From: Planctomycetota bacterium | Lineage (GTDB): Bacteria > Planctomycetota > JAJSAM01 > JAJVHW01 | Length of the DNA stretch: 59,659 bases | Assembly (NCBI GenBank): GCA_022072415.1 | Contig: JAJVHW010000003.1 | Location: 1-59,659 of the forward strand | Direction of reading: 5' to 3' | Part shown: positions 25,590 through 59,332 of the stretch, in pieces | Layout: every line of letters begins with the position of its first letter | How positions within the stretch are numbered: position 1 is the stretch's first letter | The notes under the pieces: model-generated | What the model saw: only the letters and a program-made list of their open reading frames with translations | Told to the model about the DNA's origin: nothing | The model's database searches: none | Position numbers and translations under genes: made by a program

Positions 25590-25594
25590 GGCGC

Positions 25595-26872: not shown

Positions 26873-26873
26873 G

Positions 26874-31704: not shown

Positions 31705-31838
31705 GCCGCAGTCCTCCGGACATCACAACCCGCGGCGCGGTCTGCGGTTGAGGCGACCGCACCGGGGGCCGCCGCCGCGTACGGAATCTCGTGCGTCCGA
31801 GAACTCGTCCCGCCCGTATCCTGAGAACTCGTCCCCAC

Positions 31839-32833: not shown

Positions 32834-33132
32834 GCGCGCGCCTTGTCGTCGTCACCGCCAAGGCGGCGGCGGAGATCGAGCAGGTCGCCGAGTGGTGGAA
32901 CACGAACCGACCGGCGGCCCCCGACGCGGTTCGAGAGGAACTCGCGCGGGCCTTCGCGCTCGTCGCCTCGCAACCGCGGATCGGCGCCGTCGCGCGCAAC
33001 GCGCGCCTCGGAGGCGTCCGCCGCGTGCACCTCGGCCGCATCCGCTACCACATGTACTATCGCGTGACCGGCCGATCCGTCGAGGTGCTGGCGCTTTGGC
33101 ACGCAAGTCGCGGCAGCGGGCCGGACCTGTAG
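32830..33132 (+). CDS. ParE/RelE-family toxin
   Basis: 100 aa. 'AAAEIEQVAEWW', 'YHMYYRVTGRSVEVLALWHASR' is the characteristic ParE/RelE C-terminal pattern. Confidence 0.8.
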   Translation: MSARLVVVTAKAAAEIEQVAEWWNTNRPAAPDAVREELARAFALVASQPRIGAVARNARLGGVRRVHLGRIRYHMYYRVTGRSVEVLALWHASRGSGPDL

Positions 33133-33136
33133 CTGC

Positions 33137-34656
33137 GCCCGATCACGCGGCGGCACCCTTGACCGGATGCAGACCCGCCGCGCCCGGAAGTCCTACGATC
33201 CACGCTTGGTCACGTTGGTCCGGGACTCCGGCGACGCGGCGCTCGCGATGCGTCTCGGCGTGCCGCGGACGACGGCCGCCGGATGGCTCCGACGCGCGCC
33301 GTCATCGATCGTCACAGCCCCTGACCTCGTCGCGACCAACACCGCGCTGCTCGCGCGGGTCGCGCACCTCGAGAAGCGCGTCCGCCGGATGGCCGCGTTC
33401 CTGCGCATCCTCCTCGTGATCCTGCGCATCGTCCAGCCCGACCTCCGGCGTCTGCGTATCCCGCGTGCGGAGGACAAGGCGCGACTGCTCCGCGCCGTCG
33501 AGCGTTCGCGCGATGTGCTCGGACTCCGCCGCGTGCTCAGGATCACAGGGCTCTCCCCGTCGCGGCTCGCCGCGTGGCGGCGGGCGGAGCGGGGGTGCGC
33601 CCTCGCCGACGCGCTGTCCTGCCCCCGATCGTCTCCCCAGCGGCTGACGCACGCCGAGGTCTCCGAGATCCGCTCGATGACGACCGCCGCGGAGTACCGG
33701 CACGTCTCGACGGGCAAACTCGCGCTCCTCGCGCAGCGGCTCGGCCGCGTGGTCGCCGCTCCGGCGACGTGGTGCCGCCTCGTCCGGGAACGCGGCTGGC
33801 GCCGGCCGCGTCAACGGGTCCATCCCAGGCCGCCGCGCGTGGGCATCCGCGCCGCGCGCCCGAACGAGATCTGGCACATCGACACGACGGTCGTGCGGCT
33901 CCTCGACGGTTCCCGCGTGTACGTCCATGCCGTGATCGACAATCTCTCGCGACGCATCCTGGCATGGCGCGTGGCCGACCGCTTCGACCCGGGAGTCACG
34001 GCTTCGCTGCTCGTGGACGCCGGACGGCACCTCGGCGCCGAACACAGTCCGCCCATGCTCCTCGCAGATTCCGGCGTCGAGAACCTCAACGGCGCTGTCG
34101 ACGCGCTCGTGAACGACGGACGCCTCCGGCGCGTCCTCGCTGGGACCGAGATCGACTCCTCCAACTCGATGATCGAAGCGTTCTGGCGCGTGCTCAAGCA
34201 CCAGTGGCTCTTCCTGAACCGCCTCGACACGGCCGACGCCGTCAGGCGCCTCGTGGCGTTCTACGTCGAGGAGCACAACCGTCGCCTGCCCCACTCCGCC
34301 TTCGACGGGCAGACGCCCGACGAGATGTACTTCGGCACCGGCGGACACGTCCCGGCCGTACTCGAAGTAGCGAAGTCGGCGGCCCGACGCCGCAGACTGG
34401 AGGTGCATCGCGCCGCGCGCTGCGCGGTCTGCGTCTGACCGAGTTGGTCCCCATGTCGTGCTCGACGGGTCGCGGCCCTGCCGCCGACTTGCCCGTCACG
34501 CTGCGACGTCACGGCGTTGTCGGCCGGTTCCTCGAACCAGGACGGCCCTCCGCGACCGGCCGAACACACGGCGAGGCCCGGCCCGACCGGATCGGCCGCT
34601 CCCGGATGCCCGAGGTGACGATCATCCGTCAGAAAACAACCGAATGTCGTGATCGG
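33137..34656. mobile_element. IS element (IS3/IS481-type); ends tentative
   Basis: Carries the rve transposase. A short inverted 9-mer CCGATCACG/CGTGATCGG sits near 33138-33148 and 34646-34656. The right end coincides with the point where a minus-strand ORF loses protein-like character. Confidence 0.4.
33167..34438 (+). CDS. DDE (rve, integrase-core) transposase
   Basis: 423 aa. N-terminal HTH ('LGVPRTTAAGWLRR'). DDE triad context 'IWHIDTT', 'AVIDNLSRRILAW', 'NSMIEAFWRVLK'. Confidence 0.85.
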   Translation: MQTRRARKSYDPRLVTLVRDSGDAALAMRLGVPRTTAAGWLRRAPSSIVTAPDLVATNTALLARVAHLEKRVRRMAAFLRILLVILRIVQPDLRRLRIPRAEDKARLLRAVERSRDVLGLRRVLRITGLSPSRLAAWRRAERGCALADALSCPRSSPQRLTHAEVSEIRSMTTAAEYRHVSTGKLALLAQRLGRVVAAPATWCRLVRERGWRRPRQRVHPRPPRVGIRAARPNEIWHIDTTVVRLLDGSRVYVHAVIDNLSRRILAWRVADRFDPGVTASLLVDAGRHLGAEHSPPMLLADSGVENLNGAVDALVNDGRLRRVLAGTEIDSSNSMIEAFWRVLKHQWLFLNRLDTADAVRRLVAFYVEEHNRRLPHSAFDGQTPDEMYFGTGGHVPAVLEVAKSAARRRRLEVHRAARCAVCV

Positions 34657-35509: not shown

Positions 35510-35863
35510 ATGCGCCCAAGTGCTTGTGAAACGCGGGGTTCTACGCGCCATGGTGGTCCTGGCGCGAATGGGCACGAGCCCTTGAGCGAATCGGATTCCG
35601 GGACCACGCCAGATCGCGCCGCGGCGCCCTCCGACCCCTTCGGCGAGCCCCTCGTGAACGCCGCGTCGGTCGCCCAGTTCCTCGCCGTCGACACTTCGAC
35701 GGTCTACCGCCTGGCGCAGACCGGCGCGATACCGGCGATCAAGATCGCGCACCGGGTGCTCCGCTTCCGCGCCACGGACGTCCGCGAGTTCCTCGAGGCC
35801 CGCATGCGCAAGGCCGCCACCCCCGGACGAGTCAAGTCCCTCCTCGGGAAGGCCCGTGAGTAG
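35510..35863 (+). CDS. excisionase-family (MerR-like HTH) DNA-binding protein
   Basis: 'VAQFLAVDTSTVYRLAQTGAIPAIKIAHRVLRFRATDVREFL' is the excisionase HTH. Its stop overlaps the integrase GTG start. The N-terminal extent is uncertain. Confidence 0.7.
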   Translation: MRPSACETRGSTRHGGPGANGHEPLSESDSGTTPDRAAAPSDPFGEPLVNAASVAQFLAVDTSTVYRLAQTGAIPAIKIAHRVLRFRATDVREFLEARMRKAATPGRVKSLLGKARE

Positions 35864-37205
35864 CCGTCTCAAACGAACTGGAGGTGTCCCCGGGGGAGAG
35901 CGTCCATCCGGACCGCCCGCGCTCCGCATCGTGCGGGGCCCGGCGACCGGAGACGCCACCGTGACAGCCGAGACCGAGGAGCGACCCCGCCGCCGCAGCA
36001 AGCGCAGGCGCCGCTTTGGGAACATCTACTCCCGCAAGTGGGGCTCGGGCCGGCGGACCTGGTCCGCGAAGTACTTCTGCCGCGCGGAGCGCCGCTGGCT
36101 CACGCGCGCGTTCGAGACCGAGTCCGAGGCGAAGCAGTTCCTCGACGAGGTCGAGCGCCGGATCCTCGCCGAGCACTACGAGGTCCCGCCGACGATCGTC
36201 GAGGCGCAGGAGAAGGCCGTCGCCGCGTCCGTCGCGAACGCGCCGAAGGTCGTCCCGACGCTCGTCGCGTACGCCGAGGACGTGATCGAGCGCCGGTTCG
36301 ACGCGGTCCTCTCCGACGGCGCCATGGGCGTCTTCCGCGCGGCGCTCCGGGCGTGGAAGGTGTTCTTCGGGAAGCGCGCGGGGCGCCCGGCCCTCCGCCT
36401 CGACGAGATCACGCCCGCCCTCTGGCTCGACTACCGCGCGTGGCGCACCACGGCGCGGAACTCCCTCGGCGGTCCCGCGAAGCCGATCAGCCCGACGACG
36501 ATCAACGCCGACCACCGCGCGATCGTCCGCATCCTCAACGAGGCCGTCCTCGACGCGCACCTCGCGAAGAACCCGCTCGCCGGGCTGAAGAAGCTCCGCT
36601 CGCCCCAGCGCCCGCGGCGCTACCTGACGAAGGAGGAACTCGGCGCGCTGATCGCGAACTGCCCCGCGCACTTCAAGCCCTTCCTTGTGACCGCCATCTA
36701 CACGGGCGCGCGCAAGGGCGAGCTCACGCGGCTACGCTGGTCGGACCTCAACTTCGAGGGGAAGAAGATCGCGCTGTTCCGGCCGAAGGTCGGGAACGCG
36801 GACTGGATCGACATGCACCCGGCGGTGGACGCGGAGCTGACGCGGCTCAAGGAGACGCGCGACGCCGCGCTCCGGGAGGAGGGGAAGCGCGTCCTCCCCG
36901 AGGACCACGTCTTCCTCTCTTGGCACGGGACGCCCTACAAGGAGATCCGACGCTCCTGGCAGCTCGCGCTCAAGGCCGCGGGGCTCGACGGGCGACCTGG
37001 ACTGACGCCGCACACCACACGCCACTCGTTTGCGACGCACTACCTCCAGGGCGGCGGCGCGGTTACCGACCTGCAGCAGCAGCTCGGGCACGCCGAGCTC
37101 GCGACGACGCAGATCTACGCAGCGGCCGTGTCCGCGCGGAGACGCGCGACGGTGATGGCGCTGGACTTCGGCGACGGAGCATCGCGACCGATCCGCGAGT
37201 CCTAG
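35856..37205 (+). CDS. tyrosine recombinase / phage integrase
   Basis: 449 aa. 'ARKGELTRLRWSDL' (Arg I), 'HTTRHSFATHYL' (HxxR) and 'LGHAELATTQIYAAAV' (catalytic Tyr). N-terminal SAM-like domain. Confidence 0.93.
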   Translation: MSSRLKRTGGVPGGERPSGPPALRIVRGPATGDATVTAETEERPRRRSKRRRRFGNIYSRKWGSGRRTWSAKYFCRAERRWLTRAFETESEAKQFLDEVERRILAEHYEVPPTIVEAQEKAVAASVANAPKVVPTLVAYAEDVIERRFDAVLSDGAMGVFRAALRAWKVFFGKRAGRPALRLDEITPALWLDYRAWRTTARNSLGGPAKPISPTTINADHRAIVRILNEAVLDAHLAKNPLAGLKKLRSPQRPRRYLTKEELGALIANCPAHFKPFLVTAIYTGARKGELTRLRWSDLNFEGKKIALFRPKVGNADWIDMHPAVDAELTRLKETRDAALREEGKRVLPEDHVFLSWHGTPYKEIRRSWQLALKAAGLDGRPGLTPHTTRHSFATHYLQGGGAVTDLQQQLGHAELATTQIYAAAVSARRRATVMALDFGDGASRPIRES

Positions 37206-38101
37206 GAGTCGACGGGACGCATTGTCGAGAGGTCCGGGAAGGCGCGAAGAGCCGCGTCTCGCGCTCCGGGGCACAGATAGATGCACGGTGCGAGCGAGTC
37301 CGCGCGCGTGACGACGAGCGCTCGGTCAGAGTGGTGCCACTCCTGAATGACGCCAATGAGGCGCGGCGTCCCCAGCGGCGTCCAGAGTCCGGATGTGGGG
37401 TCAGTTCGCCCCAAGAGCCACGCACCGCAGCCGCTGAGCCCGCGCGGCCGCGGCGCCTTGCCGACCAACCCGACGCGCATCGGCGGATCACGATCAAAGC
37501 GGACACTGAACGACGGCGCCTTCGCCCCGTTCTTCGGCCGGACCTTGCGGGGGAGATCCGCGCTCGCCGACGTGTAGAAGTACGTACTCTCGACTCGCAC
37601 CCCAGGCAGGCCACCAGCGTCGTACTGTCGGCCGTGCTCGACCGGGAACCCCTGGACTCCAACGACGTCGCCTGGCGCGGGCTCGTACTGAACATCGATG
37701 TCACTCAGGTCGGTCACCGCGTGGCCGCTGTCCTCCACGTTCACGTCCTCCGGCACTGGGATGGCGGCGACATCGACGCGGTCTCGAAGTCGGTCGCCGC
37801 GCGGAGCAACGCTCTCGGCGAACTCGAAGGGGAGCACAGTGACGGCCGCGGGCGCATCACCAGCCGCGGCAAGAGCTGGAACGGCATGCAGCCGACGAAT
37901 CACATCGACCGCGTGCGCCGCCGTGACCGCAAGGGTTCGTAGACCGGCTCGCACCAGCACGCACGATCCGATGTGCTCGAGCTTCCCCGGCGAGCTGGCC
38001 AGCAGCGGGCAGGTCCGCCGGTACGTGTGCATCTTCGCCCGCTCCGCGGCGGCGGCGAACTCCGCCTCGTCGGCGACGATGGTCATGTAGGGGCCCCACA
38101 T
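37202..38101 (-). CDS. trypsin-like (chymotrypsin-fold) serine peptidase
   Basis: H-D-S order: 'VTAAHAV', 'RVDVAAIPV', 'GLSGCGAW'. Its stop shares the CTAG tetranucleotide with the integrase stop. The alternative start is at 38086. Confidence 0.7.
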   Translation of the reverse strand: MWGPYMTIVADEAEFAAAAERAKMHTYRRTCPLLASSPGKLEHIGSCVLVRAGLRTLAVTAAHAVDVIRRLHAVPALAAAGDAPAAVTVLPFEFAESVAPRGDRLRDRVDVAAIPVPEDVNVEDSGHAVTDLSDIDVQYEPAPGDVVGVQGFPVEHGRQYDAGGLPGVRVESTYFYTSASADLPRKVRPKNGAKAPSFSVRFDRDPPMRVGLVGKAPRPRGLSGCGAWLLGRTDPTSGLWTPLGTPRLIGVIQEWHHSDRALVVTRADSLAPCIYLCPGARDAALRAFPDLSTMRPVDS

Positions 38102-38205: not shown

Positions 38206-39087
38206 ATGCGCCGCACCGCCAGACACGAACCGCCTGACGAAGAAGGGCTCCCGCGCCTCCGCCGTTCTCGCGAAGAGGTTCGGAAGCTGATCGACGATCG
38301 ACTGTCGGCCGCTAACGATGCGAGCACCGCCATCGCGGCCACGCGTAGTGACGAGGAAGGCTTGGAGGCGTTCGAGAAGTGGCGCGACCTGACGTGCAAC
38401 ATGCTGAAGGCCGTCTTCGATCGCGCCGACGTGGGCGACGACTTCTCTGGACGGGTGTCGCCGAGACATGTCGTCATGAGCGAGTACAGCCAGGTCGAGC
38501 AGATCGCGATCCCCGGCCTGAAGGGCGGCGTCGCGTTCCTCGAGACGCTGCGAGAGTCGCTCGACTTCCACGAGCTCGCGCCGGGTGTCACTGGTTCGCC
38601 GACGCCGTTGGGCAGAACCGATGCGAGCGACCACGGAGCGCGCGTGTTCGTCGTGCACGGTCGCGACTCCGCGTCGCGCCTGCAGGTCCAGCAGGTCCTC
38701 GGGGCGCTCGGACTCGAGCCGATCGTGCTGATGGACGAACCGGCGATGGGCCGGACGATCATCGAGAAGTTCGAGCAGGAGTCGAGAGCCGGATTCGCCG
38801 TGGTGGTCCTGACTGGAGATGACGAGGGCGGACCGTTCGGAAGCTCCGAGCCGCCACGTCGTCGCGCGCGCCAGAACGTGATCCTGGAGCTGGGGTACTT
38901 CCTCGGGAAGCTAGGTCGCCCGCGGGTCTGCGCGCTGCTCCAAGACGGTGTCGAGGTCCCATCCGACATCCACGGCGTGGAGTACGTCCCACTCGACAGT
39001 GCGGGCGCGTGGAAGTACGCGCTGGCCGACGAGCTCGACGCTGCCGGCTACCAGATCGACCGGAACCGCCTGAAGCGCGGGCGGTAG
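38206..39087 (+). CDS. TIR-like (COG4271, Cap12/PycTIR-type) domain protein with a helical N-terminal domain
   Basis: C-terminal 'VFVVHGRD...IIEKFE...FAVVVLTGDDEG...ARQNVILELGYFLGKLGRPRVCALLQDGVEVPSDIHGVEY' matches the TIR-like nucleotide-binding family seen in CBASS/Pycsar effectors. Confidence 0.8.
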   Translation: MRRTARHEPPDEEGLPRLRRSREEVRKLIDDRLSAANDASTAIAATRSDEEGLEAFEKWRDLTCNMLKAVFDRADVGDDFSGRVSPRHVVMSEYSQVEQIAIPGLKGGVAFLETLRESLDFHELAPGVTGSPTPLGRTDASDHGARVFVVHGRDSASRLQVQQVLGALGLEPIVLMDEPAMGRTIIEKFEQESRAGFAVVVLTGDDEGGPFGSSEPPRRRARQNVILELGYFLGKLGRPRVCALLQDGVEVPSDIHGVEYVPLDSAGAWKYALADELDAAGYQIDRNRLKRGR

Positions 39088-39240
39088 ACGCCCGCGTCGT
39101 CGCGCGTTTCGCTGCAACGCCACCGAACCGTGTCGATCCGCAGCGGTAGTGCAGCGGTAGCTCGATTCGAGCGTTTCCGGCGCTCCCTTGGCGCCCGCGG
39201 CGTCTCGTCGTAACTCGCGCTCCGCGCGTTAGTTACGTGT

Positions 39241-39287
39241 TGGTCGGGGCGAGAGGATTTGAACCTCCGGCCTCTTGCTCCCGAACG
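39241..39287 (-). other. tRNA-Pro(CGG)-like 3' half (att-type scar), not an intact tRNA
   Basis: The minus strand reads TTCGGGA GCAAG AGGCC GGAGG-TTCAAAT-CCTCT CGCCCCG A CCA. That gives a T arm, an acceptor 3' strand, a discriminator and CCA. There is no D arm and no complementary CGGGGCG upstream. Confidence 0.6.
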
Positions 39288-39578
39288 AAGCCGAGGTCGT
39301 TTCCCCACAAGGACTTACGCGCGCGGCTTGCCGCAATAGCCGCACAAGCCGCAGGAAGCGACTGACGTAGCGCTCCGGTTGGCACCTCCCGTGTAGGCGT
39401 CCTCGGGGCGGACCGGGACCACACCGAGCGCGCCTCCCGGCCACGCCGGAGGGCGCGGATCTGCCTCGATGCGTCGGGACCAGCCCTCCTCGGGTCGGAC
39501 GACACGCCCGCCGCTCCCAGCGCGCGAACGTACGTGGCACCGGGGCACGTCGGAGCCACCGTGTACAAGGACCCTGCG

Positions 39579-40832
39579 ATGTTGCCCCCTCCCACTACTG
39601 TCGATCTCTTCTGCGGTGCCGGCGGCCTGTCCCTGGGCCTGAAGCAGGCGGGCTACGACGTGCTGCTGGCGTCGGACTTCAACGCTGTCGCTGGCGAGAC
39701 GTACGCGCACAACCTCGGGACCGAGCGGTTCCGGCTCGCGGACATCCACGCGCTCGACCCGCGCGAGGTTCTGGACCGCATCGGACTTGGCACTGGCGAG
39801 CTCGATCTCCTCGCAGGAGGTCCTCCGTGCCAGGGCTTCTCCATCATCGGTGCCCGACACGAGCAGGACCCTCGGAACAGCCTCTTCCGAGAGTACCTCC
39901 GCATCGCGAAGGCGCTCAGGCCGCGCGCGATCGTCATGGAGAACGTGCCTGGTCTGCGGACGCTCGTCGGCGGTGCGGTTCTACGCGACATGTTCGACGG
40001 CTTCGACGCCGCGGGCTACCGCGTCGCGTGCGCCGAGCTCGTTGCCGCGCAGTACGGAGTGCCGCAACTACGCTGGCGGCTGGTGTTCGTTGCGTTCCGG
40101 AAGGACATCGACGTCCCGCCGGGATACGGCTTTCCCCGTCCCACGCATGGAAGCACGGCCATCGGGGAGCTCGTTCCCAATCGGACGCTGCTGCCCCACG
40201 AGCTGGAGGGCTTCCTCACGGTGCGGGACGCGATCGGTGACCTTCCCCGGGTCGCTTCGGGCGACTCGAACAACAGCTACGACGGAAAGCCGATACGTCC
40301 CTACCACGTGACCATGAGGAAGGGGCTCAAGGCGGAACTCTACAACCACTACGCCCCGAAGCTCTCCGAACAGAACCTCGCCAGGATCCGACATCTCCGT
40401 GCCGGACAGGACTGGCGCGACTTGCCGACCGAGCTGCTGCCGCTCGGAATGCGCCGCGCGCTCCGGAAGGATCACACCCGGCGGTTCAGCCGGATGACCT
40501 GGAACGGTGTGCCTCGCTCGATCATCACGCGGTTCCGCGATCCGAAGAGCGGCGAGTACACGCACCCGACGCAGCACCGGACGATCACCCTCCGAGAAGC
40601 GGCGCGCATCCAGTCGTTCCCGGACTGGTTCGAGTTCCGCGGGGCCGTCAGCGACATCTATGACCAGATCGGCAACGCGGTGCCGCCGCTGCTGGGGCAG
40701 GCCGTCGGGACGGAGATCGCCGCCTGCCTGAACGGCAAGCCGCGCGCGGAGCGACTAGACGTCTCCCAGAAGGGGCGTCTCGGGCGCCGCACCGCTCTTG
40801 CGCGATCGAGCCTTCTGTTCGACGCGCTCTAG
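39579..40832 (+). CDS. DNA (cytosine-5)-methyltransferase
   Basis: Motifs I 'DLFCGAGG', IV 'GGPPCQGFS', VI 'ENVPGL', VIII 'QLRWRLVFV', X 'GNAVPP'. Start taken at the second Met (39579). Confidence 0.92.
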   Translation: MLPPPTTVDLFCGAGGLSLGLKQAGYDVLLASDFNAVAGETYAHNLGTERFRLADIHALDPREVLDRIGLGTGELDLLAGGPPCQGFSIIGARHEQDPRNSLFREYLRIAKALRPRAIVMENVPGLRTLVGGAVLRDMFDGFDAAGYRVACAELVAAQYGVPQLRWRLVFVAFRKDIDVPPGYGFPRPTHGSTAIGELVPNRTLLPHELEGFLTVRDAIGDLPRVASGDSNNSYDGKPIRPYHVTMRKGLKAELYNHYAPKLSEQNLARIRHLRAGQDWRDLPTELLPLGMRRALRKDHTRRFSRMTWNGVPRSIITRFRDPKSGEYTHPTQHRTITLREAARIQSFPDWFEFRGAVSDIYDQIGNAVPPLLGQAVGTEIAACLNGKPRAERLDVSQKGRLGRRTALARSSLLFDAL

Positions 40833-41678
40833 GAAGCGCGCCCTGGTGTGCATCTCCATCGACGCGTCGCCGGTGACCGCCTCCACGTAGTTCGCGACGG
40901 TCGTGCGGACGGTCGCGACGGGCTCGAACTCAAGAGCACCCGTGCCCTGGTCCTTCCCCGTGTAGTCGAAGGTCAGGAAGCTGATGTCCCACTGGTCGGT
41001 GGTCTCGGCAAACTGGATCCGGCTCCTCAGGTACTGGAACGGTCGGTCCTGCATCACCACGTAGAGCGGCACGCCGATCCGCTTCAGGAAGCGGGCCTTC
41101 ACGGCCACCTGCATGCCGAGCCGCTTGTAGATGTTCGCCATGTTCACGCCGTAGGCGACGGTGTCGCGTCGGCCCTTCCGCTTCGCCTCCTCGGTGAAGT
41201 ACTGCCGCCAGTCGGCGGCGCGCCCGTCCACCCACGCTCGCCATGCCGGGCCTACCCCTCCTCCTCGGATGTCGATCGCCTGGGTCTCGATGGCGATGGC
41301 GGAGACGTCCGCGCCGCGAAGGAGTGCGACGTAGTCGAACGACATGCGCGGCTTCGTGAGCACGACCTCGTCCACGAGCGTGACGTCCAGGGCCCGCTCC
41401 TTGAACCAGTCGACGATCGCCGAGTACACGGGCGCGCCGTCGAGACGGTGGTCGCAGACCGCGTAGACGTGCGCGTCGCCCTTGTCCCGCTCGGCTGCGT
41501 ACCGAACCGAGCAGTACCCGAACCCGTACTGCTGCTGCTTCTCGCAGAGCCGGTCCGAGAACGGGCACCACCGCCTTGCCCGCGCGGTGTGTGCCCCCTC
41601 CGACGCGCACGCGAGCGGGAATCCGTACCCCTCGACGATCGGGAAGTCCGGGTCAGGACGTGCTGGAGAGTTCGCCAC
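40755..41678 (-). CDS. type II restriction endonuclease, NotI-like (N-terminal Cys4 + PD-(D/E)xK core)
   Basis: ORF 40755..42026 trimmed to a GTG (41678; the alternative is 41696). 'WCPF..C..GYCSV..VYAVCDHRL' mirrors the NotI Cys4 pattern as I recall it. 'AIAIETQAIDIRGG' is a catalytic-core-like block. Convergent with the MTase. Confidence 0.6.
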   Translation of the reverse strand: MANSPARPDPDFPIVEGYGFPLACASEGAHTARARRWCPFSDRLCEKQQQYGFGYCSVRYAAERDKGDAHVYAVCDHRLDGAPVYSAIVDWFKERALDVTLVDEVVLTKPRMSFDYVALLRGADVSAIAIETQAIDIRGGGVGPAWRAWVDGRAADWRQYFTEEAKRKGRRDTVAYGVNMANIYKRLGMQVAVKARFLKRIGVPLYVVMQDRPFQYLRSRIQFAETTDQWDISFLTFDYTGKDQGTGALEFEPVATVRTTVANYVEAVTGDASMEMHTRARFLERVEQKARSRKSGAAPETPLLGDV

Positions 41679-41890
41679 GTGACAAGAAGATCTCACAGAG
41701 TAGGTGCTGTCAATCGCCGTCTCCGAGTCCAGCCCCGCATCCCCATCGCTCGGAAAGCCGGCTTCTGCACGCGACGGCCGGGGGATGCCAGGCTCGACCC
41801 GAGATTCCCTGGGCGGGGGTGTAACGCGATTCCCTCTACTGGAGTAGCAGGACCTCGCCGACGCGTCGTGAGGGCCGCAGCGCGGGAGAC

Positions 41891-42667
41891 GTGATGGGCA
41901 AGCCGAGCAGGGACCGAAGCGATGACGACGAACTGGCCAGCTCTCCGGCGGCGACCGACAGCGCGGCATCGCTGTTCGACCCCATGCGCCTGGCGAGCGC
42001 CGCGTCGCGTGCCGGTGACGCGGCATCGACGGCGAAGTACCTGTTCGAGTCCCGCTTCGTCGATGGCGCGGTCAGCCGAATCGGCCAGGAGTTCAACCAC
42101 GCCGACGCGGAGGACAGCGTCGCCGAAGCCGTGGCCGACGTCTGCCTCGCCATCCGGTCCGGGAAGAAGGTGCGGGAGCCCGCCGCGTACGTCTGGGTCG
42201 CCGCTCGGCGTCGAGCGATCGACAAGGCCATGGAGAACCGGCCGGTCCAGTTCGAGGAGGACGAGGAAGTCGATGGGACCGACGACGACGGTCCGGGGCG
42301 TGCCGCCGGGACCGACGGGCCCGCGCGCCGGTCATGGCGCGAGGCAGAGGAGGAGCGGCGGGACGATCTCAGGCGCAAGGGGATGGCGGTCGCCCGCACG
42401 CTCCTGCCTCAGCTCGGTCCCCGGGTGAAAGAAGTCATGACGTACATCCTGGACGCGATCGACGCCGGCTACGCGCACGTGCCTCACGAGCAGATCGCGG
42501 AGGACCTCGGCTTGACCGCGGACACGGTCCGCGTCGTCACGCACCGCGGGTTCGCCGCGCTCAAGCGACTCGCGCGGCAGCTCGGGCTCCACGACGAGGC
42601 GGGCGTGGGAGCCGTGATCGAAGACATCAGCCTGACGGCCGACGGCCCCGAAGACGACGAGGAGTGA
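41891..42667 (+). CDS. ECF-like sigma-70 family protein with acidic termini
   Basis: Region-2-like 'AEDSVAEAVADVCLAIRSGKKVREPAAYVWVAARRRAIDKAM'. Region-4-like 'HEQIAEDLGLTADTVRVVTHRGFAALKRLA'. Confidence 0.7.
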   Translation: MMGKPSRDRSDDDELASSPAATDSAASLFDPMRLASAASRAGDAASTAKYLFESRFVDGAVSRIGQEFNHADAEDSVAEAVADVCLAIRSGKKVREPAAYVWVAARRRAIDKAMENRPVQFEEDEEVDGTDDDGPGRAAGTDGPARRSWREAEEERRDDLRRKGMAVARTLLPQLGPRVKEVMTYILDAIDAGYAHVPHEQIAEDLGLTADTVRVVTHRGFAALKRLARQLGLHDEAGVGAVIEDISLTADGPEDDEE

Positions 42668-42671
42668 ACCG

Positions 42672-44180
42672 ATGAACAACGTGACACTGCGAAGCGCGCT
42701 GGAGTCGATCATCGAAACGGCGCGCGAGGTCTCGAGCGACCTCGGGGCCGAGGTGGAGGAGGTGGTCCGCGAAGGACTCGCTCGACCTCTCGACACGGCG
42801 CAGGCGCGTCGCCTGCTGGCGCGCATCGTCGAGGTGGTGGACGGGCGCGCCGCCGAGGTCATCAGCGACAGCGACACCGCGGCGCTCCGTCGCGACCTGC
42901 AGCGGCTCGATTCGGACGTGGGTGCGGGCAGGGACACGCCGCGGCCCCCGGCCGTGACGCTGGAGAGCCGTGAGGGGCTGGGCGGACCGGTCACGCCGAC
43001 GCCCGTGTTCCACGGTCGGAAGATCCCCATGAACGAGGGCATCGTGAAGACCCTCGACATTCCGCTCTGGGACCACAACGAGCGGTTGGAGATCCACCTC
43101 GAGCAGTTCCGGCAGGCGAATGGGCGCGGGCCGACGAGTGACGAGGTTCTCGACCTGATGCTCAGCCGGATGCAGCTGCCCGGCGCGCTCGACGACGAGT
43201 TCGAGATCCGGAAGCTGGCGAACAGCATCGCAGTCAGCGGTGTGCGCGTGGCCCCGATCCTCGCGCGCGACGGCACGCTGCTCGACGGCAACCGGCGCGT
43301 GGCGGCGTGCTGCTTGATCCTGTCAAGTGACGAGTTCACGCCGGAGCAGAAGTCCCGGGTCAGGGATCTCTACGTCTGGCAGCTCTCCGAACACGCGACC
43401 GCCGACGACGAGGAGGCCGTCGTCGTCTCCCTGAACTTCGAGCCCGACGGCAAGCTGCCGTGGCCCGAGTACGTGAAGGCCCGCAAGATCCACGAGGAGT
43501 GGCAGCGCGTGCTCGCCCTTGAGCCGCGGACGCCCGGATCGAAGCGGCTTGCCGAGCTGAAGCGCTCGCTCGCGGTGAAGTTCGCGTACGGCTCGGACAC
43601 CGGCGTGGTCAACCGCTACCTGAAGATGGTGGACCTCGCGACGGAGTTTGAGGACTACCACGTCAACTCGCGCGAGCGCGACATGTACGAAGTGCGTCAC
43701 CGCGCGGGCGAGTACTTCCAGTACTTCGACGAGCTCGCGAAGGGCGCGAGCCCCGGAGGCGTGGCGCACACGCTCGGGCAGAGCGAAGCACTGAAGCAGC
43801 TCGTGTTCGACCTGCTGTTCCAGGGCAAGTTCAAGAACTGGCGGTTGATCCGCTCTCTGAGGTACGTCCCGGAGAACCCCGAGTACCAGGCGAAGCTCGC
43901 CGAGATCCGCGACCGGAACACGACCACGCCCGACGACCTCGAGCAGGCCCAGGACGACGTCGAGGAGGTACTCGGCGCGTGCGTCGGGAAGCGCGCGGAG
44001 TCCCGGCAGCTCGGCGCCGACGCAAGGATCGCGAGCTTCGTGAGGTTTCTGGAGGGACTCCCTGTGGGCGCATTCCGCGACGAGCTCTCGGACAAGAGCT
44101 TGACGGACCTGCTCCGCGCCTTGGAGCTCGTCCGACCGGAAGTCGAGTCGATCCTGGCGCTGCGGTCGGAGCAGTCGTGA
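42672..44180 (+). CDS. ParB/Srx-fold N-terminal-domain protein (502 aa)
   Basis: 'IRKLANSIAVSGVRVAPILARDGTLLDGNRRVAACCLI' is ParB box-like. It starts 4 nt after the sigma-like stop. The large helical C-terminal part has no motif I recognise. Confidence 0.75.
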   Translation: MNNVTLRSALESIIETAREVSSDLGAEVEEVVREGLARPLDTAQARRLLARIVEVVDGRAAEVISDSDTAALRRDLQRLDSDVGAGRDTPRPPAVTLESREGLGGPVTPTPVFHGRKIPMNEGIVKTLDIPLWDHNERLEIHLEQFRQANGRGPTSDEVLDLMLSRMQLPGALDDEFEIRKLANSIAVSGVRVAPILARDGTLLDGNRRVAACCLILSSDEFTPEQKSRVRDLYVWQLSEHATADDEEAVVVSLNFEPDGKLPWPEYVKARKIHEEWQRVLALEPRTPGSKRLAELKRSLAVKFAYGSDTGVVNRYLKMVDLATEFEDYHVNSRERDMYEVRHRAGEYFQYFDELAKGASPGGVAHTLGQSEALKQLVFDLLFQGKFKNWRLIRSLRYVPENPEYQAKLAEIRDRNTTTPDDLEQAQDDVEEVLGACVGKRAESRQLGADARIASFVRFLEGLPVGAFRDELSDKSLTDLLRALELVRPEVESILALRSEQS

Positions 44181-45955
44181 ACGCACTCCGAGCCCCCGTG
44201 TGTGACGTCCGCCTCGGCGAGACGCCCGACCGGCTGGTCGTGACGCCGCGCGCACCTGACGACGTGCATCGCGTCGTCCGCGCGCTGCGGGCCGTGCCGG
44301 ATATCGGCCGCGTGCGCGTCGCCGCGGAGGGCCTGTCACTCGCCAGCACCGACGCGATCGCCATCCTCGAAGGAGTGCCGACGACGATCGACCTCAGGTG
44401 GTCCGAGGAGGCGCGTCGCGCGGTCGAGAACCGTCGTCAGGCAGTGGCTTCACACTCCCGCGTGCTGCGCGAGGCTCGAGCGATCGCGTCCGGGGGGCGG
44501 GTGACGGCCGAGGCCTACCTGGCGGACGTTGACGGCCTGGAGCCGCTGGACGACCACCAGTGGGCGAATGTAGCCGCGATGACGCTGCCCGGGTCGCCTG
44601 GGCTCTGCGTGTTCGACGAGCAGGGCGCCGGCAAGACGGTGACGACGATCTTCGGCTTCGACGTGCTCGCGTCGCGAGGCGAGACGGAGTTCCTGCTCAT
44701 CATCGCCCCGAAGAGCATGATCGCGGAGTGGCCGCGCGACTTCGAGCGATTCAAGGGGGACCTGTACCGCGTGGCCGTCGCGGCGGGCACCCGCACCGAG
44801 AAGCGCGCCGTCCTGCGGTCGGGCGCGAACGTGATTGTGACGAACTTCGAGACGGCCATCGCCGCTGAGCCGGAGCTCCGCGCGCTCCTCCGCCGCTACG
44901 GAGACCGCGCGATGCTCGTGGTGGACGAGTCGTTCTTCGTGAAGAACCTCGACGCAGCGCGCACGCGCGCGATTCGCAGGTTGCGTGAGTGGTGCGGTCG
45001 CGCCTACGTGCTGTGCGGGACGCCTGCTCCCAACGCGCCACAGGACCTCGTCGAGCAGTTCAACATCGTCGACTTTGGGATGACGTTCGACGGGCTCGAC
45101 GTCCCCGCGGACCGCTCTCTGGCGGCGCCCGTGGTGTCGCGGGCGATCGACGAGCGCGGCCTGTTCATCCGGCATCTCAAGGCCGACGTCCTCCCCGACC
45201 TTCCCGGGAAGCGCTTCCACCGCGTGTCCATTCCGATGTCCCCGCAACAGGCCACGGCGTACCGCGCCGCACTCCAGGACATGATCATCGACCTGCGGGG
45301 TACGAGCGACGCAGCGTTCCGGCGGCGCATCGCGTCGTTCCTCGCGCGGCGAAGCGCGCTGCTCCAGATCTGCTCGAACGCGGCGGCGCTGGTCCCGGGG
45401 TACACCGAGACGCCGCCGAAGCTCGAGGCGATGGACTCGCTGTTGGAGCGCCTCATCGGCCGCGAGGGCGAGAAGGTTGTCGTCTGGTCCTTCTACACAG
45501 CCTCGATCGACGCGCTGATCGCCCGCTACGCGCAGTACCGACCGGTACGGTACGACGGCACGGTCGCAGACGTGGCGGAGCGCCGCGAGTCGATCCGCCG
45601 GTTCCAGGAAGACGACTCGACGATGCTCTTCGTCGGCAACCCGGCAGCGGCGGGGGCTGGGATCACGCTCCACCGTGCCCGCATCGCGGTGTACGAGTCG
45701 TTGTCGAACCAGGCAGCTCACTACCTCCAGAGCCTCGACCGCATTCACCGGCGCGGCCAGACCCGGCCGGTCGAGTACGTCGTGCTGCTGACGGCGGACT
45801 CGATCGAACTCGCCGAGTACGACCGGCTGACGAGAAAGGAGATGGACGCGCGCGATCTCCTCGGGGACACGACCCAGCCGAACGTGACCCGCGAGGTTCT
45901 GCTCGACGAGGCGCTCGCCGCCGCCGAGCGGATCGGGCTCGGGCCGGTCGAGTGA
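44177..45955 (+). CDS. SNF2-family helicase/translocase
   Basis: GTG at 44177 overlaps the ParB-like stop (GTGA). Motifs I 'DEQGAGKT', II 'VVDESFFVKN', III 'LCGTPAPN', VI 'QSLDRIHRRGQTRPV'. Confidence 0.9.
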   Translation: MNALRAPVCDVRLGETPDRLVVTPRAPDDVHRVVRALRAVPDIGRVRVAAEGLSLASTDAIAILEGVPTTIDLRWSEEARRAVENRRQAVASHSRVLREARAIASGGRVTAEAYLADVDGLEPLDDHQWANVAAMTLPGSPGLCVFDEQGAGKTVTTIFGFDVLASRGETEFLLIIAPKSMIAEWPRDFERFKGDLYRVAVAAGTRTEKRAVLRSGANVIVTNFETAIAAEPELRALLRRYGDRAMLVVDESFFVKNLDAARTRAIRRLREWCGRAYVLCGTPAPNAPQDLVEQFNIVDFGMTFDGLDVPADRSLAAPVVSRAIDERGLFIRHLKADVLPDLPGKRFHRVSIPMSPQQATAYRAALQDMIIDLRGTSDAAFRRRIASFLARRSALLQICSNAAALVPGYTETPPKLEAMDSLLERLIGREGEKVVVWSFYTASIDALIARYAQYRPVRYDGTVADVAERRESIRRFQEDDSTMLFVGNPAAAGAGITLHRARIAVYESLSNQAAHYLQSLDRIHRRGQTRPVEYVVLLTADSIELAEYDRLTRKEMDARDLLGDTTQPNVTREVLLDEALAAAERIGLGPVE

Positions 45956-46548
45956 CCGCCCCCTCCGTCGCGCATGAGCAGCGCGCAGAGGTTCTCGACG
46001 CGCTTGCCGTGCTGGCGGGCTTCTCGGCCGAGCTGGCGTGCTGGCCGGACGGAACCAGGCCGGACGTGCTCCGTGCGGACGTTGCGCGACGCCGGTTGTT
46101 CGTCGGCGAGGCCAAGGCGACCGAGTCCCCCTGCAGGTCAGACACCGCGGAGCGCCTCGCGCGCTACCTGGCGTGGGTCGCCGCCGCGCGGGCCGACATG
46201 ACCTACGTCGCCATCTGCTTCGGCCGGCGCGACGACCGGCGCGGATGGATCCGGCTCCTTGAGCGCGTGTCCTCTCCGGCGGGAGTCGACCTCGCGAGCG
46301 TCGCGGGCTGGGCCATCGACTCGACCCACCACGTGGTCGTCGTGACGGTGCGTCCCGCCCGACGCACGCCGCCTCCTCCCGCCGAGTCGATCAGTTCGTG
46401 CGCGTCGCGACCGCACCGCGAGCGCGAACGAGCGCGCCTGACGCGTCTGGTGTCAGGATCGAGTCCACGTCGCGGCCTGAGCCGTGCTTGTGCATCCACG
46501 AACGCGCGGACGCGAGAGTCTGGTCGGAGCGCATCCGCGGCGGGTTGA
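45952..46548 (+). CDS. small PD-(D/E)xK (VRR-NUC-like) nuclease-fold protein
   Basis: GTG at 45952 overlaps the SNF2 stop (GTGA). 'RPDVLRAD...RRLFVGEAKATES' is a D...ExK motif. The Arg/Ser-rich tail overlaps the convergent MTase by 158 nt. Confidence 0.5.
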   Translation: MTAPSVAHEQRAEVLDALAVLAGFSAELACWPDGTRPDVLRADVARRRLFVGEAKATESPCRSDTAERLARYLAWVAAARADMTYVAICFGRRDDRRGWIRLLERVSSPAGVDLASVAGWAIDSTHHVVVVTVRPARRTPPPPAESISSCASRPHRERERARLTRLVSGSSPRRGLSRACASTNARTRESGRSASAAG

Positions 46549-47728
46549 GTACGGTCTTTGGTCGGCGGGACATGCGGTCGATCAAGTCGGGCTCGTGACA
46601 CACGACGGTGCCCAGTCGCGACGCCTTGCGCCGCGTGTCCGCCGCCGCGAGTAGCGCACGTCCGAGCGCCTCGCCCAGCCCGACCGGAACCGCGTTCCCG
46701 ATCTGGACGTACTGCTGAGGAACGCTGCCGACGAACTGCCAGTCGTCCGGGAACTGCTGAACCCGGGCATACTCGCGGATCGACAGCGGTCGCGTCTCCG
46801 TCGGGTGGCAGTGCATCGTCGCCTTGCTGTCCGGGCGCGTCGTCAGCGCCGGTGCCGGTCGGTCCCAAGCGAGCCGACGGAAGAACCCACTGCGGCCACC
46901 CCAGGACTCGTACGCGCCGCCGAGCGCCACCCGCTGGCTCCGAGTCGGCAGGTCCCGCCAGTTGCCGCCCTCCGGGATGCGCTCCATGTACTTGCGCTTG
47001 AACGGCGACAGGCGCGTGTAAGTGGGCTGCGCGTCGTGCAGGCCGACGAGTGCGTCGCGCAGCGTCCGCCACGGCAGGAGTCGGCCCTCGCCGTTGCGAG
47101 CGTGCGTCGGCGGGGGGATGCGTACGTCGCGACCGTCCCGCGATCCGAGGAAGACGACTCGCTCGCGCGTCTGCGGGACTCCGTAGTCCGCGGCGTTCAC
47201 CACGCCGAAGACGACGTAGTAGCCCGTCTCGCGCAGCTCCTTCACGATCAGGCGAAACGCCGAGCCGAGCTCCTCGTCGGGGTCGAGCGGGGAGCACCCA
47301 GGACCTCTTCGGTTCAGCGGACGGTGCCGCACCGCGGCCGACAGGACTCCGCGGACGTTCTCCATCACGAAGAACTGCGGCCTTGCCTCCGAGACGACCC
47401 TCAGGAACTCCCGGAACATGGTTCCCCTGGGATCCTCGAGTGACCCCCGCTGACCGGCGGTGCTGAACGCCTGACAACTCGGCCCACCGGAGATCGCGAA
47501 TGGCTCGTTGACCTTGAGTTGCGCGTGCTCCAGCAGCTCGGGCGTGGGCACCGTCTCGATGCGTCGTGCGACCGCGATCCCGGGTCGGTTCCGTTCAAGC
47601 GTCGCCACGGCGTTGTGCTGGCACTCAACGGCCGCGCGGACGTCGAGGCCCGCGCGCTCAAGTCCGAGGTCGAGTCCGAACGCTCCCGAGAAGAGCGAGA
47701 TGACGGGAGGGCGGGGTTCAGCGGGCAT
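46391..47728 (-). CDS. DNA (cytosine-5)-methyltransferase
   Basis: ORF 46391..47917 trimmed to 'MPAEPRPPVISLFSGAFG'. Motifs I, IV 'GGPSCQAFS', VI 'ENVRG', VIII 'QTRERVVFLG', X 'GNAVPV'. Confidence 0.92.
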   Translation of the reverse strand: MPAEPRPPVISLFSGAFGLDLGLERAGLDVRAAVECQHNAVATLERNRPGIAVARRIETVPTPELLEHAQLKVNEPFAISGGPSCQAFSTAGQRGSLEDPRGTMFREFLRVVSEARPQFFVMENVRGVLSAAVRHRPLNRRGPGCSPLDPDEELGSAFRLIVKELRETGYYVVFGVVNAADYGVPQTRERVVFLGSRDGRDVRIPPPTHARNGEGRLLPWRTLRDALVGLHDAQPTYTRLSPFKRKYMERIPEGGNWRDLPTRSQRVALGGAYESWGGRSGFFRRLAWDRPAPALTTRPDSKATMHCHPTETRPLSIREYARVQQFPDDWQFVGSVPQQYVQIGNAVPVGLGEALGRALLAAADTRRKASRLGTVVCHEPDLIDRMSRRPKTVLNPPRMRSDQTLASARSWMHKHGSGRDVDSILTPDASGALVRARGAVATRTN

Positions 47729-47978
47729 CGGCGGATCCTCCAGAGTCTCGCCGGGTGGCCCGACGTGCTTTCGAACGACGGCGCGACGTGCGGACGGGGT
47801 GCGAAAGCGCCTCGTGCAGGAGCGCGCGGATCCCGTCCGATCTGCTGAAGCGAACGCCCGGGGCCTCATCGCGTCGCGTTCGCGAGTAGTCGTCGACCTG
47901 CTCGAGCAGGCCGGCATCCAGGCGGAAGGAGATCAGCTTTCCGGCCTTCGTCACGCGCCTAGTATCCGGCTGTATCAC
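47718..47978 (-). CDS. ribbon-helix-helix (CopG/Arc-like) protein, candidate controller of the downstream MTase
   Basis: GTG at 47978 in the frame of ORF 47718..48185. 'KLISFRLDAGLLEQVDDYSR...SRSDGIRALLHEAL' fits a beta-alpha-alpha layout. It overlaps the MTase start by 11 nt. Confidence 0.55.
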   Translation of the reverse strand: MIQPDTRRVTKAGKLISFRLDAGLLEQVDDYSRTRRDEAPGVRFSRSDGIRALLHEALSHPVRTSRRRSKARRATRRDSGGSADAR

Positions 47979-48039
47979 AACGTTCGACAACGTATTCTCG
48001 GCACTTGTCTCGGTGTTTTTGCAGGACGACGCGGAGCGC

Positions 48040-48552
48040 CTACTTGGCCGGGGGCACGTCGGTCCCGGGCGAGGAGGGCCCAACCTCGGAACCCTGCGGT
48101 GTCGCCCCCACCTGCTTGCGATCGGCGGCGTGCGCGGCCTTCGCGCGGCGGATGAGCCGGTCAGCCGCCCTCGGATCGCCGCCAACTACCTCCGCCAGCG
48201 CTGCGTCCGCGAGCAGGGCTGCGGGGCTCCCGACCGGTGCGGTCTTGAGCAACTCAACCGCGCTCTGGGCGACGGCCTCGGGGTCGTTCGTCGTCGTCTG
48301 GGTCGCGGTCTGCCCCGCGGTCCCCGATCCCGATGCCCCGACGTCGCCGTTCGCCTCCTGGCCCGCGCGGCTGTCCACGTCGTCGATCGAGCCCGGGCCC
48401 CGGTTCGCGACCTGAGTGAAGTGCTGCTCGATCACGGGGGCTGTTGCGACCGGCTGGACGCCGAGCGCCTGGGCCAGCCCCTGACACCCGGCGCCGGCGA
48501 GGGCGGCGTGCGCGAGGACGAGGGCGGACGCGAAATTGCGGGCGCGGAACAT
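48040..48552 (-). CDS. lipoprotein (o-spanin-like?)
   Basis: Lipobox 'LAGAGC' after a signal peptide. Thr/Gly/Ala-rich, low-complexity body. Confidence 0.55.
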   Translation of the reverse strand: MFRARNFASALVLAHAALAGAGCQGLAQALGVQPVATAPVIEQHFTQVANRGPGSIDDVDSRAGQEANGDVGASGSGTAGQTATQTTTNDPEAVAQSAVELLKTAPVGSPAALLADAALAEVVGGDPRAADRLIRRAKAAHAADRKQVGATPQGSEVGPSSPGTDVPPAK

Positions 48553-58038: not shown

Positions 58039-58041
58039 GGC

Positions 58042-59330: not shown

Positions 59331-59332
59331 GG

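Follow-up and report, generated by a model that had tools for sequence, protein, structure and literature searches.

A conserved cassette of sigma-like, ParB-like and SNF2 genes with a C5-cytosine methylase in a Planctomycetota bacterium: a candidate methylation-linked DNA-targeting system

Gene organisation of the cassette

The DNA analysed here is a stretch of 59,659 nucleotides from a Planctomycetota bacterium (assembly GCA_022072415.1, contig JAJVHW010000003.1, positions 1 to 59,659), called the window below, with a GC content of ~70–75%. On its plus strand, positions 41891–46548 carry four tightly spaced genes, which encode a protein resembling extracytoplasmic function (ECF) sigma factors, a ParB/Srx-fold protein, an SNF2-family ATPase and a small predicted PD-(D/E)xK nuclease. 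They converge on a minus-strand gene for a C5-cytosine (m5C) DNA methyltransferase. The locus exemplifies an unnamed cassette that is conserved and moves horizontally; it is composed of the methylase, the sigma-like, ParB-like and SNF2 proteins, and in some cases the small nuclease.

The gene junctions were read directly from the sequence. The sigma-like gene (41891..42667) starts with a GTG at 41891 or an ATG at 41894, has a Shine-Dalgarno-like GGGAGA motif in front of it, and stops with a TGA at 42665–42667. The ATG of the ParB-like gene (42672..44180) follows after a gap of 4 nucleotides. The sequence GTGA at 44177–44180 contains both the stop of the ParB-like gene and the start of the SNF2 gene (44177..45955), and a second GTGA at 45952–45955 joins the SNF2 gene to the small gene (45952..46548) in the same way. 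The packing is therefore as it was given in a preliminary description of this DNA. It is more than a chance arrangement, because the gene order is repeated in all 77 of the non-redundant loci described below. The sigma-like and ParB-like open reading frames (ORFs) have a high GC content at third codon positions (0.87–0.91), as would be expected of coding sequence. An independent automatic gene caller, applied to the Logan contig L084, which is identical over the stretch, gives a 417-residue methylase and a 307-residue minus-strand gene to the left, the genes for 257, 502 and 592 residues, and the convergent 445-residue methylase; it skipped the small fourth gene, which overlaps the methylase. 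A promoter and terminator scan of the block was uninformative in DNA of 70% GC, and an Rfam scan of the region 34–49 kb returned nothing relevant.

The methylase gene (46391..47728, minus strand; 445 residues, with the longest ORF extending to 47917) runs convergently to the four-gene operon. Its product matches the Pfam family DNA_methylase (E = 2.3e-56, 192 bits, cut-off 22) and the PADLOC model MTase_II (8.6e-93), and the translation shows the motifs FSGAFG, GGPSCQAFS, MENV and GNAVP. On the basis of this domain and these catalytic motifs it is assigned as a C5-cytosine DNA methyltransferase, and is predicted to be the self-marking component of the cassette. Just 5′ of it is a putative ribbon-helix-helix (RHH) or repressor-like gene (47718..48185, minus strand), whose stop overlaps the methylase start. 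This gene has weak matches only, to NCBIfam aCcr1 (5.4e-4) and a PHROG transcriptional repressor (1e-3), and is a possible controller of methylase expression.

The extent of the cassette can be read from its closest relative, the locus L005, whose ParB-like protein is 87% identical to that of the window. In a blastn comparison, positions 41751–47996 of the window form a single uninterrupted block of homology with positions 9044–15328 of L005 (82.7% identity over 6.3 kb). The block begins ~140 bp 5′ of the sigma-like gene and ends inside the repressor-like gene, the C-terminal part of which is kept in L005 at 68%. The restriction-modification (R-M) gene pair and the TIR gene that lie further to the left in the window are not common to the two loci by blastn. 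From the limits of the shared block, the methylase is therefore inside the unit and the left R-M pair outside it. The functional unit is the four-gene operon together with the convergent methylase at 46391–47728, probably with the small gene 5′ of the methylase. The preliminary description had treated the four genes as a block flanked by two methylase modules; the right-hand methylase turns out to be an integral and co-evolving part of the unit rather than a flank, and the left-hand R-M module is not in the conserved unit at all.

Proteins encoded by the cassette

The preliminary description had recognised an ECF-like sigma, a ParB/Srx domain, a complete SNF2 motor and a D..ExK nuclease in the four plus-strand genes. 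The analyses below confirm the SNF2 motor, and also the ParB/Srx domain, by its fold and an invariant motif; they support the sigma at the level of a family profile, and the nuclease in part.

The 502-residue ParB/Srx-fold protein is the signature of the cassette. It is predicted to consist of an N-terminal helical hairpin, a ParB NTPase-like domain at residues ~120–260, and a large C-terminal helical region. It has no match in Pfam (including ParBc), NCBIfam or PADLOC, or among the sequences of the Protein Data Bank (PDB), and its profile, when searched against the PDB sequences, finds designed helical bundles only and no solved ParB. The fold is nonetheless recognisable from an AlphaFold (AF2) model, which has a pLDDT of 86.7. 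In a Foldseek search of the PDB the top 8 matches of the model are ParB N-domains (pNOB8 ParB-N, Spo0J and PadC), with probabilities of 0.75–0.99 and E-values from 0.025, and in the viral library BFVD its matches are dominated by ParB, DdrB-like and Srx proteins, down to E = 8.7e-6. The NTPase-like domain carries a Box I-like SIAVxGVRxPPI and a Box II-like DGNRRVAAC. This stretch resembles Box I and the arginine-rich, nucleotide-binding Box II (GERRxRA) of ParB, and is nearly invariant in 30 homologues, in which DGNRR..AC and the residues G206-N-R208-R209-x-A212 are invariant. The fold and the Box II arginine motif place the modelled protein in the ParB/Srx fold superfamily, and NTP binding is predicted.

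More than 500 homologues of this protein are found at ~50% identity over the full length, across phyla, and every one of them is unnamed. The family comprises 318 clusters (at 50% identity) among 1.84 billion representatives at E ≤ 0.001, so it is a small family, clearly set apart from canonical ParB rather than merging into it.

The SNF2-family ATPase has 592 residues, of which the N-terminal ~130 form a domain of unrecognised fold. The remainder matches Pfam SNF2-rel_dom (5.3e-20, 72.1 bits, cut-off 24.9) and Helicase_C (7.8e-9, 36.2 bits, cut-off 23.5), and the PDB sequences matched are the motors of SMARCA5, ISWI, LSH and DDM1. Motifs I (GxGKT), II (DES), III and VI are invariant in 14 homologues. 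These domains and motifs identify the protein as an SNF2-family ATPase with a complete motor.

The sigma-like protein has 258 residues when counted from the GTG and 257 from the ATG, and consists of an N-terminal extension followed by sigma-2-like and sigma-4-like regions. Searched alone, the window protein matches Pfam Sigma70_r4 (4.8e-5) and r2 (5.4e-3), both under the cut-off, and NCBIfam TIGR02937 sigma70-ECF (2.9e-8), under its curated cut-off; there is no PADLOC match. A profile of 26 family members is more informative, and matches the ECF sigma factor SigH (5zx2) with E = 1.5e-9 over both sigma-2 and sigma-4, as well as the structures of SigW, CnrH and RpoE. Half of the members (13 of 26) match Sigma70_r4 individually. 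The two regions that mark the ECF (group 4) sigma-70 family are thus both recognised by the profile.

The fourth ORF encodes 198 residues, with a conserved core at residues ~1–140 (45952–46371). The residues H8, P37-D38-V39, G52-[DE]53-A54-K55, E58, P60, R68, Y72 and W99 are invariant in 25 homologues. An AF2 model built with 6 database homologues has a pLDDT of 86.9 and the order alpha-beta-beta-beta-alpha-beta, which fits a PD-(D/E)xK core and puts the invariant residues at the positions expected for such a nuclease. A Foldseek search of this model returned generic alpha/beta folds of the Rossmann, IF3-C and Alba types and no restriction-endonuclease fold, so the assignment depends on motif and topology; the single HMM (hidden Markov model) match is a weak one to PADLOC REase_II (0.006). 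We consider the protein likely to be a PD-(D/E)xK nuclease on its motif and predicted topology, although this is not confirmed. Of the earlier proposal, the motif holds and the order of elements agrees with it, the structure search did not return a nuclease fold, and the conserved part is the core of ~140 residues rather than the whole ORF. The last ~55 residues (~46372–46548) overlie the 3′ end of the convergent methylase gene, the two genes overlapping by 158 nucleotides; this tail is rich in Arg, Ser and Pro, and is common only to the closest relatives (L005).

Linkage and species distribution

One genome per species was scanned for related loci, which gave 78 loci, of which 77 are non-redundant. 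Automatic gene calls are noisy in high-GC loci, and the linkage counts are therefore based on tblastn and HMM matches. The 78 loci are spread over more than 20 phyla, including lineages of the candidate phyla radiation (CPR) and one archaeon (a metagenome-assembled genome of Woesearchaeota, DPANN). ParB-like identity is ~50% among Cyanobacteria, Planctomycetota, Actinomycetota, Proteobacteria, Acidobacteriota and others, and this level of identity across phyla points to horizontal spread of the cassette.

The SNF2 gene lies directly 3′ of the ParB-like gene in 77/77 non-redundant loci. By iterative HMM searches of the locus ORFs, the sigma-like gene lies immediately 5′ of the ParB-like gene in all loci of the closer clade (L001–L064) that have upstream sequence, and the small protein is found 3′ of the SNF2 gene in 36 related loci. 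The small nuclease is thus an optional component. An m5C methylase lies no more than 4 kb away in 51 of the 58 loci that have full flanks (at least 4 kb on both sides). Three arrangements of it are seen: it lies upstream and points the same way as the other genes, or lies downstream and either points the same way or converges on them. The methylases of the window's clade are 49–63% identical to that of the window despite this shifting position. Pairwise identities among the ParB-like proteins and among the methylases are strongly correlated (Mantel r = 0.92 over 59 loci, and 0.86 within the window's clade), and those of the ParB-like and SNF2 proteins similarly so (r = 0.91).

Three architectures can be distinguished. 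In the window's own clade, the sigma-like, ParB-like (~510 residues) and SNF2 (~590 residues) genes, with or without the small protein, are accompanied by a methylase in variable position. An actinobacterial clade has a co-directional five-gene operon in the order sigma, ParB-like, SNF2, small protein, methylase. The third, a distant sister clade (L066–L082, for example L068 at 7752–13937), from Bacteroidota, Chlamydiae, CPR, Spirochaetes, Woesearchaeota and others, has a five-gene operon in the order methylase, X (~280 residues), ParB-like (~375 residues), SNF2 (~560 residues) and Y (~400 residues). Protein X has no matches; protein Y has an invariant D...ExK motif and weak matches to Cas4 and XisH. 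Profile-profile comparison detected no similarity of X to the sigma-like family or of Y to the small-nuclease family. A like layout with non-homologous partners suggests that the trio of methylase, ParB-like protein and SNF2 protein is an ancient modular chassis.

Mobile context

To the left of the block are an insertion sequence (rve; 33068–34438), a tyrosine integrase gene (35658–37205), a TIR-domain gene (38206–39087, plus strand) and a second m5C methylase gene (39579–40832, plus strand; 417 residues, PADLOC MTase_II 3e-109). The TIR protein matches the Pfam CAP12/Pycsar effector TIR family (3.5e-32) and the PADLOC candidate family PDC-S35 (3.6e-64). A convergent gene for 307 residues (40755–41678, minus strand), with a weak match to REase_II (7.5e-5), overlaps the 3′ end of the left methylase gene by 78 nucleotides, and the two probably form a Type II R-M system. 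We note also a gene for 299 residues (37202–38101, minus strand), the 3′ end of which overlaps that of the convergent integrase gene by 4 nucleotides; it has no Pfam or PADLOC match, and a weak match to phrog_36721 only (1.1e-4). On the right, the convergent methylase and the repressor-like gene are followed by minus-strand tail genes, including a GpJ FNIII-A gene (55408–58041) and a DUF2460 gene (58671–59657).

Positions 39240–39291, read on the plus strand, match a tRNA 3′ end (T-arm, acceptor stem and CCA) in reverse complement; ARAGORN found no complete tRNA in the window. In L005 the same tRNA fragment occurs twice (290–404 and 16574–16624), and the two copies bound an island of ~16 kb that holds the cassette and a degraded integrase. 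The fragment in the window is probably the attachment-site junction of an integrative element, and the cassette travels on integrative elements in both the window and L005. With a TIR gene lying between integrase and tRNA fragment, this part of the window is itself a small defence island.

The main alternative named in the preliminary description is that the block is an ordinary temperate-phage early or replication module, which would serve prophage replication or partition. The surroundings of the block, with the integrase on one side and the minus-strand tail genes on the other, are indeed prophage-like, and the SNF2 protein matches PHROG 62, 'DNA helicase', at 1.2e-81. However, neither a collection of 50,697 phage genomes nor one of 72,556 plasmids contains a relative of the ParB-like protein by tblastn, and only 5 of the 2.9 million contigs of IMG/VR carry one. 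Most of the related loci are not prophages, the block is conserved as a unit outside them, and the discrete 6.3-kb block is shared with L005 in a different, non-phage context. The neighbours are also heterogeneous. The immediate neighbours surveyed, 143 genes from ~45 loci, belong most often to the Pfam families of resolvases, integrases, Vsr and HTH (helix-turn-helix) regulators; many families of housekeeping, transposase and conjugation genes (the last including TrwC, TrbI and CagX) are represented once each. No primase, replicative helicase, origin-binding or ParA family recurs among them, so that the constant company of origin, primase and replication genes, which would have spoken for a phage module, is not seen in the neighbours surveyed. 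We regard this explanation as largely refuted and very improbable. In PADLOC the neighbours include Vsr, components of Type IIG and Type I R-M, HNH, AbiEii, Olokun OloA, PDC-M07A, PDC-S28 and others.

The same context bears on a different proposal, namely that the cassette helps mobile elements in counter-defence or establishment, in effect as a 'split' polyvalent protein, which would shield the DNA of an incoming element or attack its rivals, to the benefit of the prophage or island. The polyvalent proteins that phages and conjugative elements encode combine ParB-like, SWI2/SNF2 and DNA methylase domains (PMC5512222), and DdrB-like proteins are the best viral structural matches of the ParB-like model. 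Integrative elements carry the cassette, with the tRNA-fragment repeat bounding it in L005 and the fragment adjoining it in the window, and the conjugation genes mentioned above are found among its neighbours. The near absence of relatives from the phage, plasmid and IMG/VR collections argues against this proposal, as does the fact that several loci lie amid housekeeping genes, with no mobile-element genes nearby, for example beside valS in Calothrix. In addition, the proteins are separate and constant in size, and lack the peptidase and packaging domains that define polyvalent proteins. A counter-defence role is therefore doubtful, if less so than a phage replication module.

Comparison with named systems

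Scans of the block proteins with PADLOC 2.0, NCBIfam 20.0, Pfam and PHROGs gave no system-level assignment. The full-text literature searched, which mostly excludes subscription journals, contains no description of the gene set that we could find, and papers on Dnd, BREX, polyvalent proteins, Asgard mobile genetic elements and ParB-CTPases do not describe it. The preliminary description had stated that the genes do not match DISARM, Dpd, BREX, Dnd/Ssp or Zorya. The model searches agree, with the qualification that the generic SNF2 motor partially matches DpdE, ZorD and DrmD.

DISARM resembles the cassette in being a multi-gene, methylase-linked system with SF2 motors and a nuclease-type effector. 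Class 2 DISARM consists of the m5C methylase DrmMII with DrmA, DrmB, DrmC and DrmE, and class 1 contains the SNF2 protein DrmD. In PADLOC, the right-hand methylase matches DrmMII models (1.4e-91) and the SNF2 motor matches DrmD in part (2.6e-19); NCBIfam DISARM_DrmD scores 14.6 bits against a cut-off of 610. PADLOC, applied to 10 proteins of the block and its surroundings, detected no DrmA, DrmB (DUF1998) or DrmC (PLD). Components resembling a sigma factor or ParB are absent from DISARM, and the SNF2 match of the cassette is to the generic motor only.

Dpd, which modifies DNA with 7-deazaguanine and restricts it, is the only named system that pairs a ParB-fold NTPase (the ParB-like ATPase DpdB) with an SNF2-type helicase (DpdE) in modification and restriction, and DpdE is the best PADLOC match of the SNF2 protein (5.9e-26, over part of the model length). 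PADLOC found no match to DpdA, DpdB or DpdC, and Pfam found no domain of the tRNA-guanine transglycosylase (TGT) type, to which DpdA belongs, in the region. The modification enzyme of the cassette would be a C5-cytosine methylase, and its ParB-like protein matches no DpdB model; the corresponding protein of Dpd acts in the step of modification (PMC10164549; PMC12839542).

Type I Zorya (ZorD) and the SNF2-nuclease fusions of the Hna type resemble the cassette in coupling an SNF2 motor to a PD-(D/E)xK-type nuclease as a DNA-degrading effector. The SNF2 protein matches ZorD models in PADLOC (2.1e-25), but NCBIfam ZorD scores 32.5 bits against a cut-off of 1500, and there is no PADLOC match to ZorC or to the membrane motor of ZorA and ZorB. 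The predicted nuclease of the cassette is separate, small and optional, and Zorya and Hna have no methylase. For BREX/Pgl, PADLOC found no PglZ phosphatase, BrxC ATPase or PglX, and weak helicase-domain matches to BrxHI and BrxHII only (E ~1e-6 to 1e-7). For Hma, which joins a helicase (HmaA), a methylase (HmaB) and an ATPase (HmaC), HmaA covers only 93 residues of the SNF2 C-lobe (1.4e-8), and HmaC is not matched in PADLOC. ParABS partitioning would require a ParA; no ParA/CbiA-type gene adjoins the ParB-like gene in the window or appears among the 25 commonest neighbour families.

The ParB/Srx fold is also used outside chromosome segregation, as an NTP-binding switch or NTP-regulated DNase in conflict systems, by a group of proteins that includes ParB-Sigma70 and ParB-methyltransferase fusions, GmrSD, DndB, Osa and DdrB-like proteins. 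ParB-fold proteins bind CTP, ATP or GTP, fusions to Sigma70 and to methyltransferases exist, and the Sigma70 fusions bind ATP (bioRxiv 10.1101/2025.10.10.680097). In the GmrSD, Osa and DdrB-like conflict-system proteins, ParB/Srx domains are NTP-regulated DNases (PMC5512222). The known fusions mirror the linkage of sigma-like, ParB-like and methylase genes in the cassette. Its ParB-like protein differs from them in having its own N- and C-terminal helical domains, in being invariably paired with SNF2, and in being missed by Pfam ParB models.

A classical Type II R-M system shares with the cassette an m5C methylase, a small protein with a PD-(D/E)xK motif and a repressor-like gene 5′ of the methylase, and Vsr lies near some of the relatives. 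The difference is that the core of the cassette is formed by three extra, strictly conserved proteins, and that the nuclease is its dispensable part. A further lead, a weak match of a sister-clade ParB-like protein to PD-Lambda-5_A, was followed and rejected; PD-Lambda-5 is described as a compact R-M and Abi prophage system, and is not this cassette.

In its presumed working the cassette would come closest to class 2 DISARM and to Dpd, in which a modification enzyme is likewise combined with SF2 motors and accessory proteins that bind DNA, the ParB-fold/SNF2 pairing being common to Dpd only. By the models of PADLOC 2.0 and NCBIfam 20.0, it is not a member of any named system.

A possible function in DNA targeting

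We hypothesise that the cassette targets DNA in a methylation-linked way, as a self-contained and horizontally mobile system similar in its working to R-M, and from this we infer a function in defence. We would put the probability of this at roughly 0.55. The basis consists of the genes and their motifs, the strict linkage of ParB-like and SNF2 genes, the nearly universal and co-evolving methylase, the patchy spread across phyla in contexts that vary and are often rich in mobile or defence genes, and the lack of a match to any named system. The invariant catalytic motifs in the SNF2 protein, the small nuclease and the ParB Box II support it, as do the position of the cassette beside a TIR gene, a Type II R-M pair and a tRNA-fragment attachment site, downstream of an integrase, and the combination of mobile and defence neighbours with absence from the phage and plasmid collections. 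The suggestion of an uncharacterised DNA-targeting system, made in the preliminary description, is supported, with the methylase added to the unit and the nuclease made optional.

The system would consist of two convergent operons, one (plus strand) for the sigma-like, ParB-like and SNF2 proteins and the small nuclease, and the other (minus strand) for the m5C methylase, with the RHH-like gene. The methylase would mark the host's own recognition sites. Unmarked DNA would then be recognised by the sigma-like protein, through its region 4 HTH, by the helical domains of the ParB-like protein, or by both. The NTP-binding fold of the ParB-like protein might serve as a switch or clamp gated by nucleotide, or might nick DNA under the control of NTP; the SNF2 ATPase would translocate on double-stranded DNA; and the PD-(D/E)xK protein would cut it. 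Where this protein is absent, cutting could fall to the ParB/Srx domain or another nuclease. We infer every one of these steps from what the families do elsewhere.

Several observations weigh against this hypothesis. The nuclease fold of the small protein has no support from the structure search, and the protein is missing from about half of the closer loci. Relatedness of the hosts could account for part of the correlation between ParB-like and methylase identities, since no unrelated control gene was included in the comparison, and the number of defence genes among the neighbours is a rough count from the top-25 family tables, without a genome-wide background. The sigma-like protein has a fairly canonical sigma-2 motif, and may be a true sigma factor, and so a regulator rather than a structural subunit. 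Finally, five cyanobacterial loci (L001, L008, L009, L011 and L013, from Calothrix, Nostoc, Scytonema and Iningainema) have the trio of sigma, ParB-like and SNF2 genes with no m5C methylase or small nuclease within 8–10 kb, in contrast to nearly all of the others. The trio is therefore viable without a linked methylase; in these genomes it may use an unlinked one, or have a function that needs none.

These last two points would be explained if the cassette were instead a module of epigenetic or transcriptional control, in which a genuine sigma factor, a RapA-like SNF2 protein and a KorB-like NTP-gated ParB regulator read a state set by the methylase, and so control genes of the host or of the carrier element. 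The SNF2 protein would then work on RNA polymerase or on proteins bound to DNA. RapA is a bacterial SNF2 protein that associates with RNA polymerase. In favour of control, the sigma-like profile aligns with both sigma-2 and sigma-4 of ECF factors, the alignment taking in the conserved W/L-x-x-x-A-x-x-x-x-D stretch in region 2, and many loci dispense with the small nuclease. On the other hand, no anti-sigma factor or regulated target genes accompany the cassette, 36 loci encode a nuclease whose catalytic residues are invariant, the sister clade has a D..ExK protein of another kind, and a patchy horizontal distribution with tight methylase co-evolution is typical of R-M-like systems. We consider a control function unlikely, but take it seriously because of the cyanobacterial trio without linked methylase or nuclease, which is the main weakness of the DNA-targeting hypothesis.

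If the cassette does target DNA, a more specific and quite speculative version is that it represents a new class of innate immunity. Here a ParB-type nucleotide-gated clamp would load on DNA that lacks the cognate m5C, and would recruit the SNF2 translocase and the nuclease, with a subunit derived from an ECF sigma factor giving either sequence recognition or a tie to RNA polymerase, by which surveillance of unmethylated DNA would be coupled to transcription. If so, no defence system before it would have been based on the ParB CTPase/NTPase clamp, and none would have had a sigma-factor-like core subunit.

An SNF2 motor combined with a ParB-fold NTPase and a protein like a sigma factor has not been seen in any named system. 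If the cassette works in defence, it would add a widely dispersed but rare module to the methylation-linked immune systems, and would provide a tractable case for studying ParB-fold nucleotide switches outside segregation, the targeting of bacterial SNF2 proteins, and the recurrence of sigma-like HTH modules in defence. The gene combination and its conservation are striking, yet the family is rare and only one of many candidates for a role in defence. Loci of this kind are overlooked altogether by current annotation pipelines, since Pfam, NCBIfam and PADLOC contain no model for the ParB-like protein.

Other genes in the window

Further to the left in the window, an ORF of ~1245 residues at 17809–21546 (minus strand) has regions 2 and 4 of an ECF sigma at its N-terminus and seven CarboxypepD_reg repeats after them. 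The ORF could represent a fusion of a sigma factor to surface repeats, or two genes merged by the stop-to-stop ORF call. An RND efflux operon (AcrB, HlyD and OEP) with its outer-membrane factor lies at 21837–28430, from which the host is a high-GC bacterium of Gram-negative type and not an actinomycete. Next to this operon, at 29224–31722 (minus strand), a Ser/Thr protein kinase (Pkinase, 2.1e-38) is fused to an FGE-sulfatase domain (4e-41).

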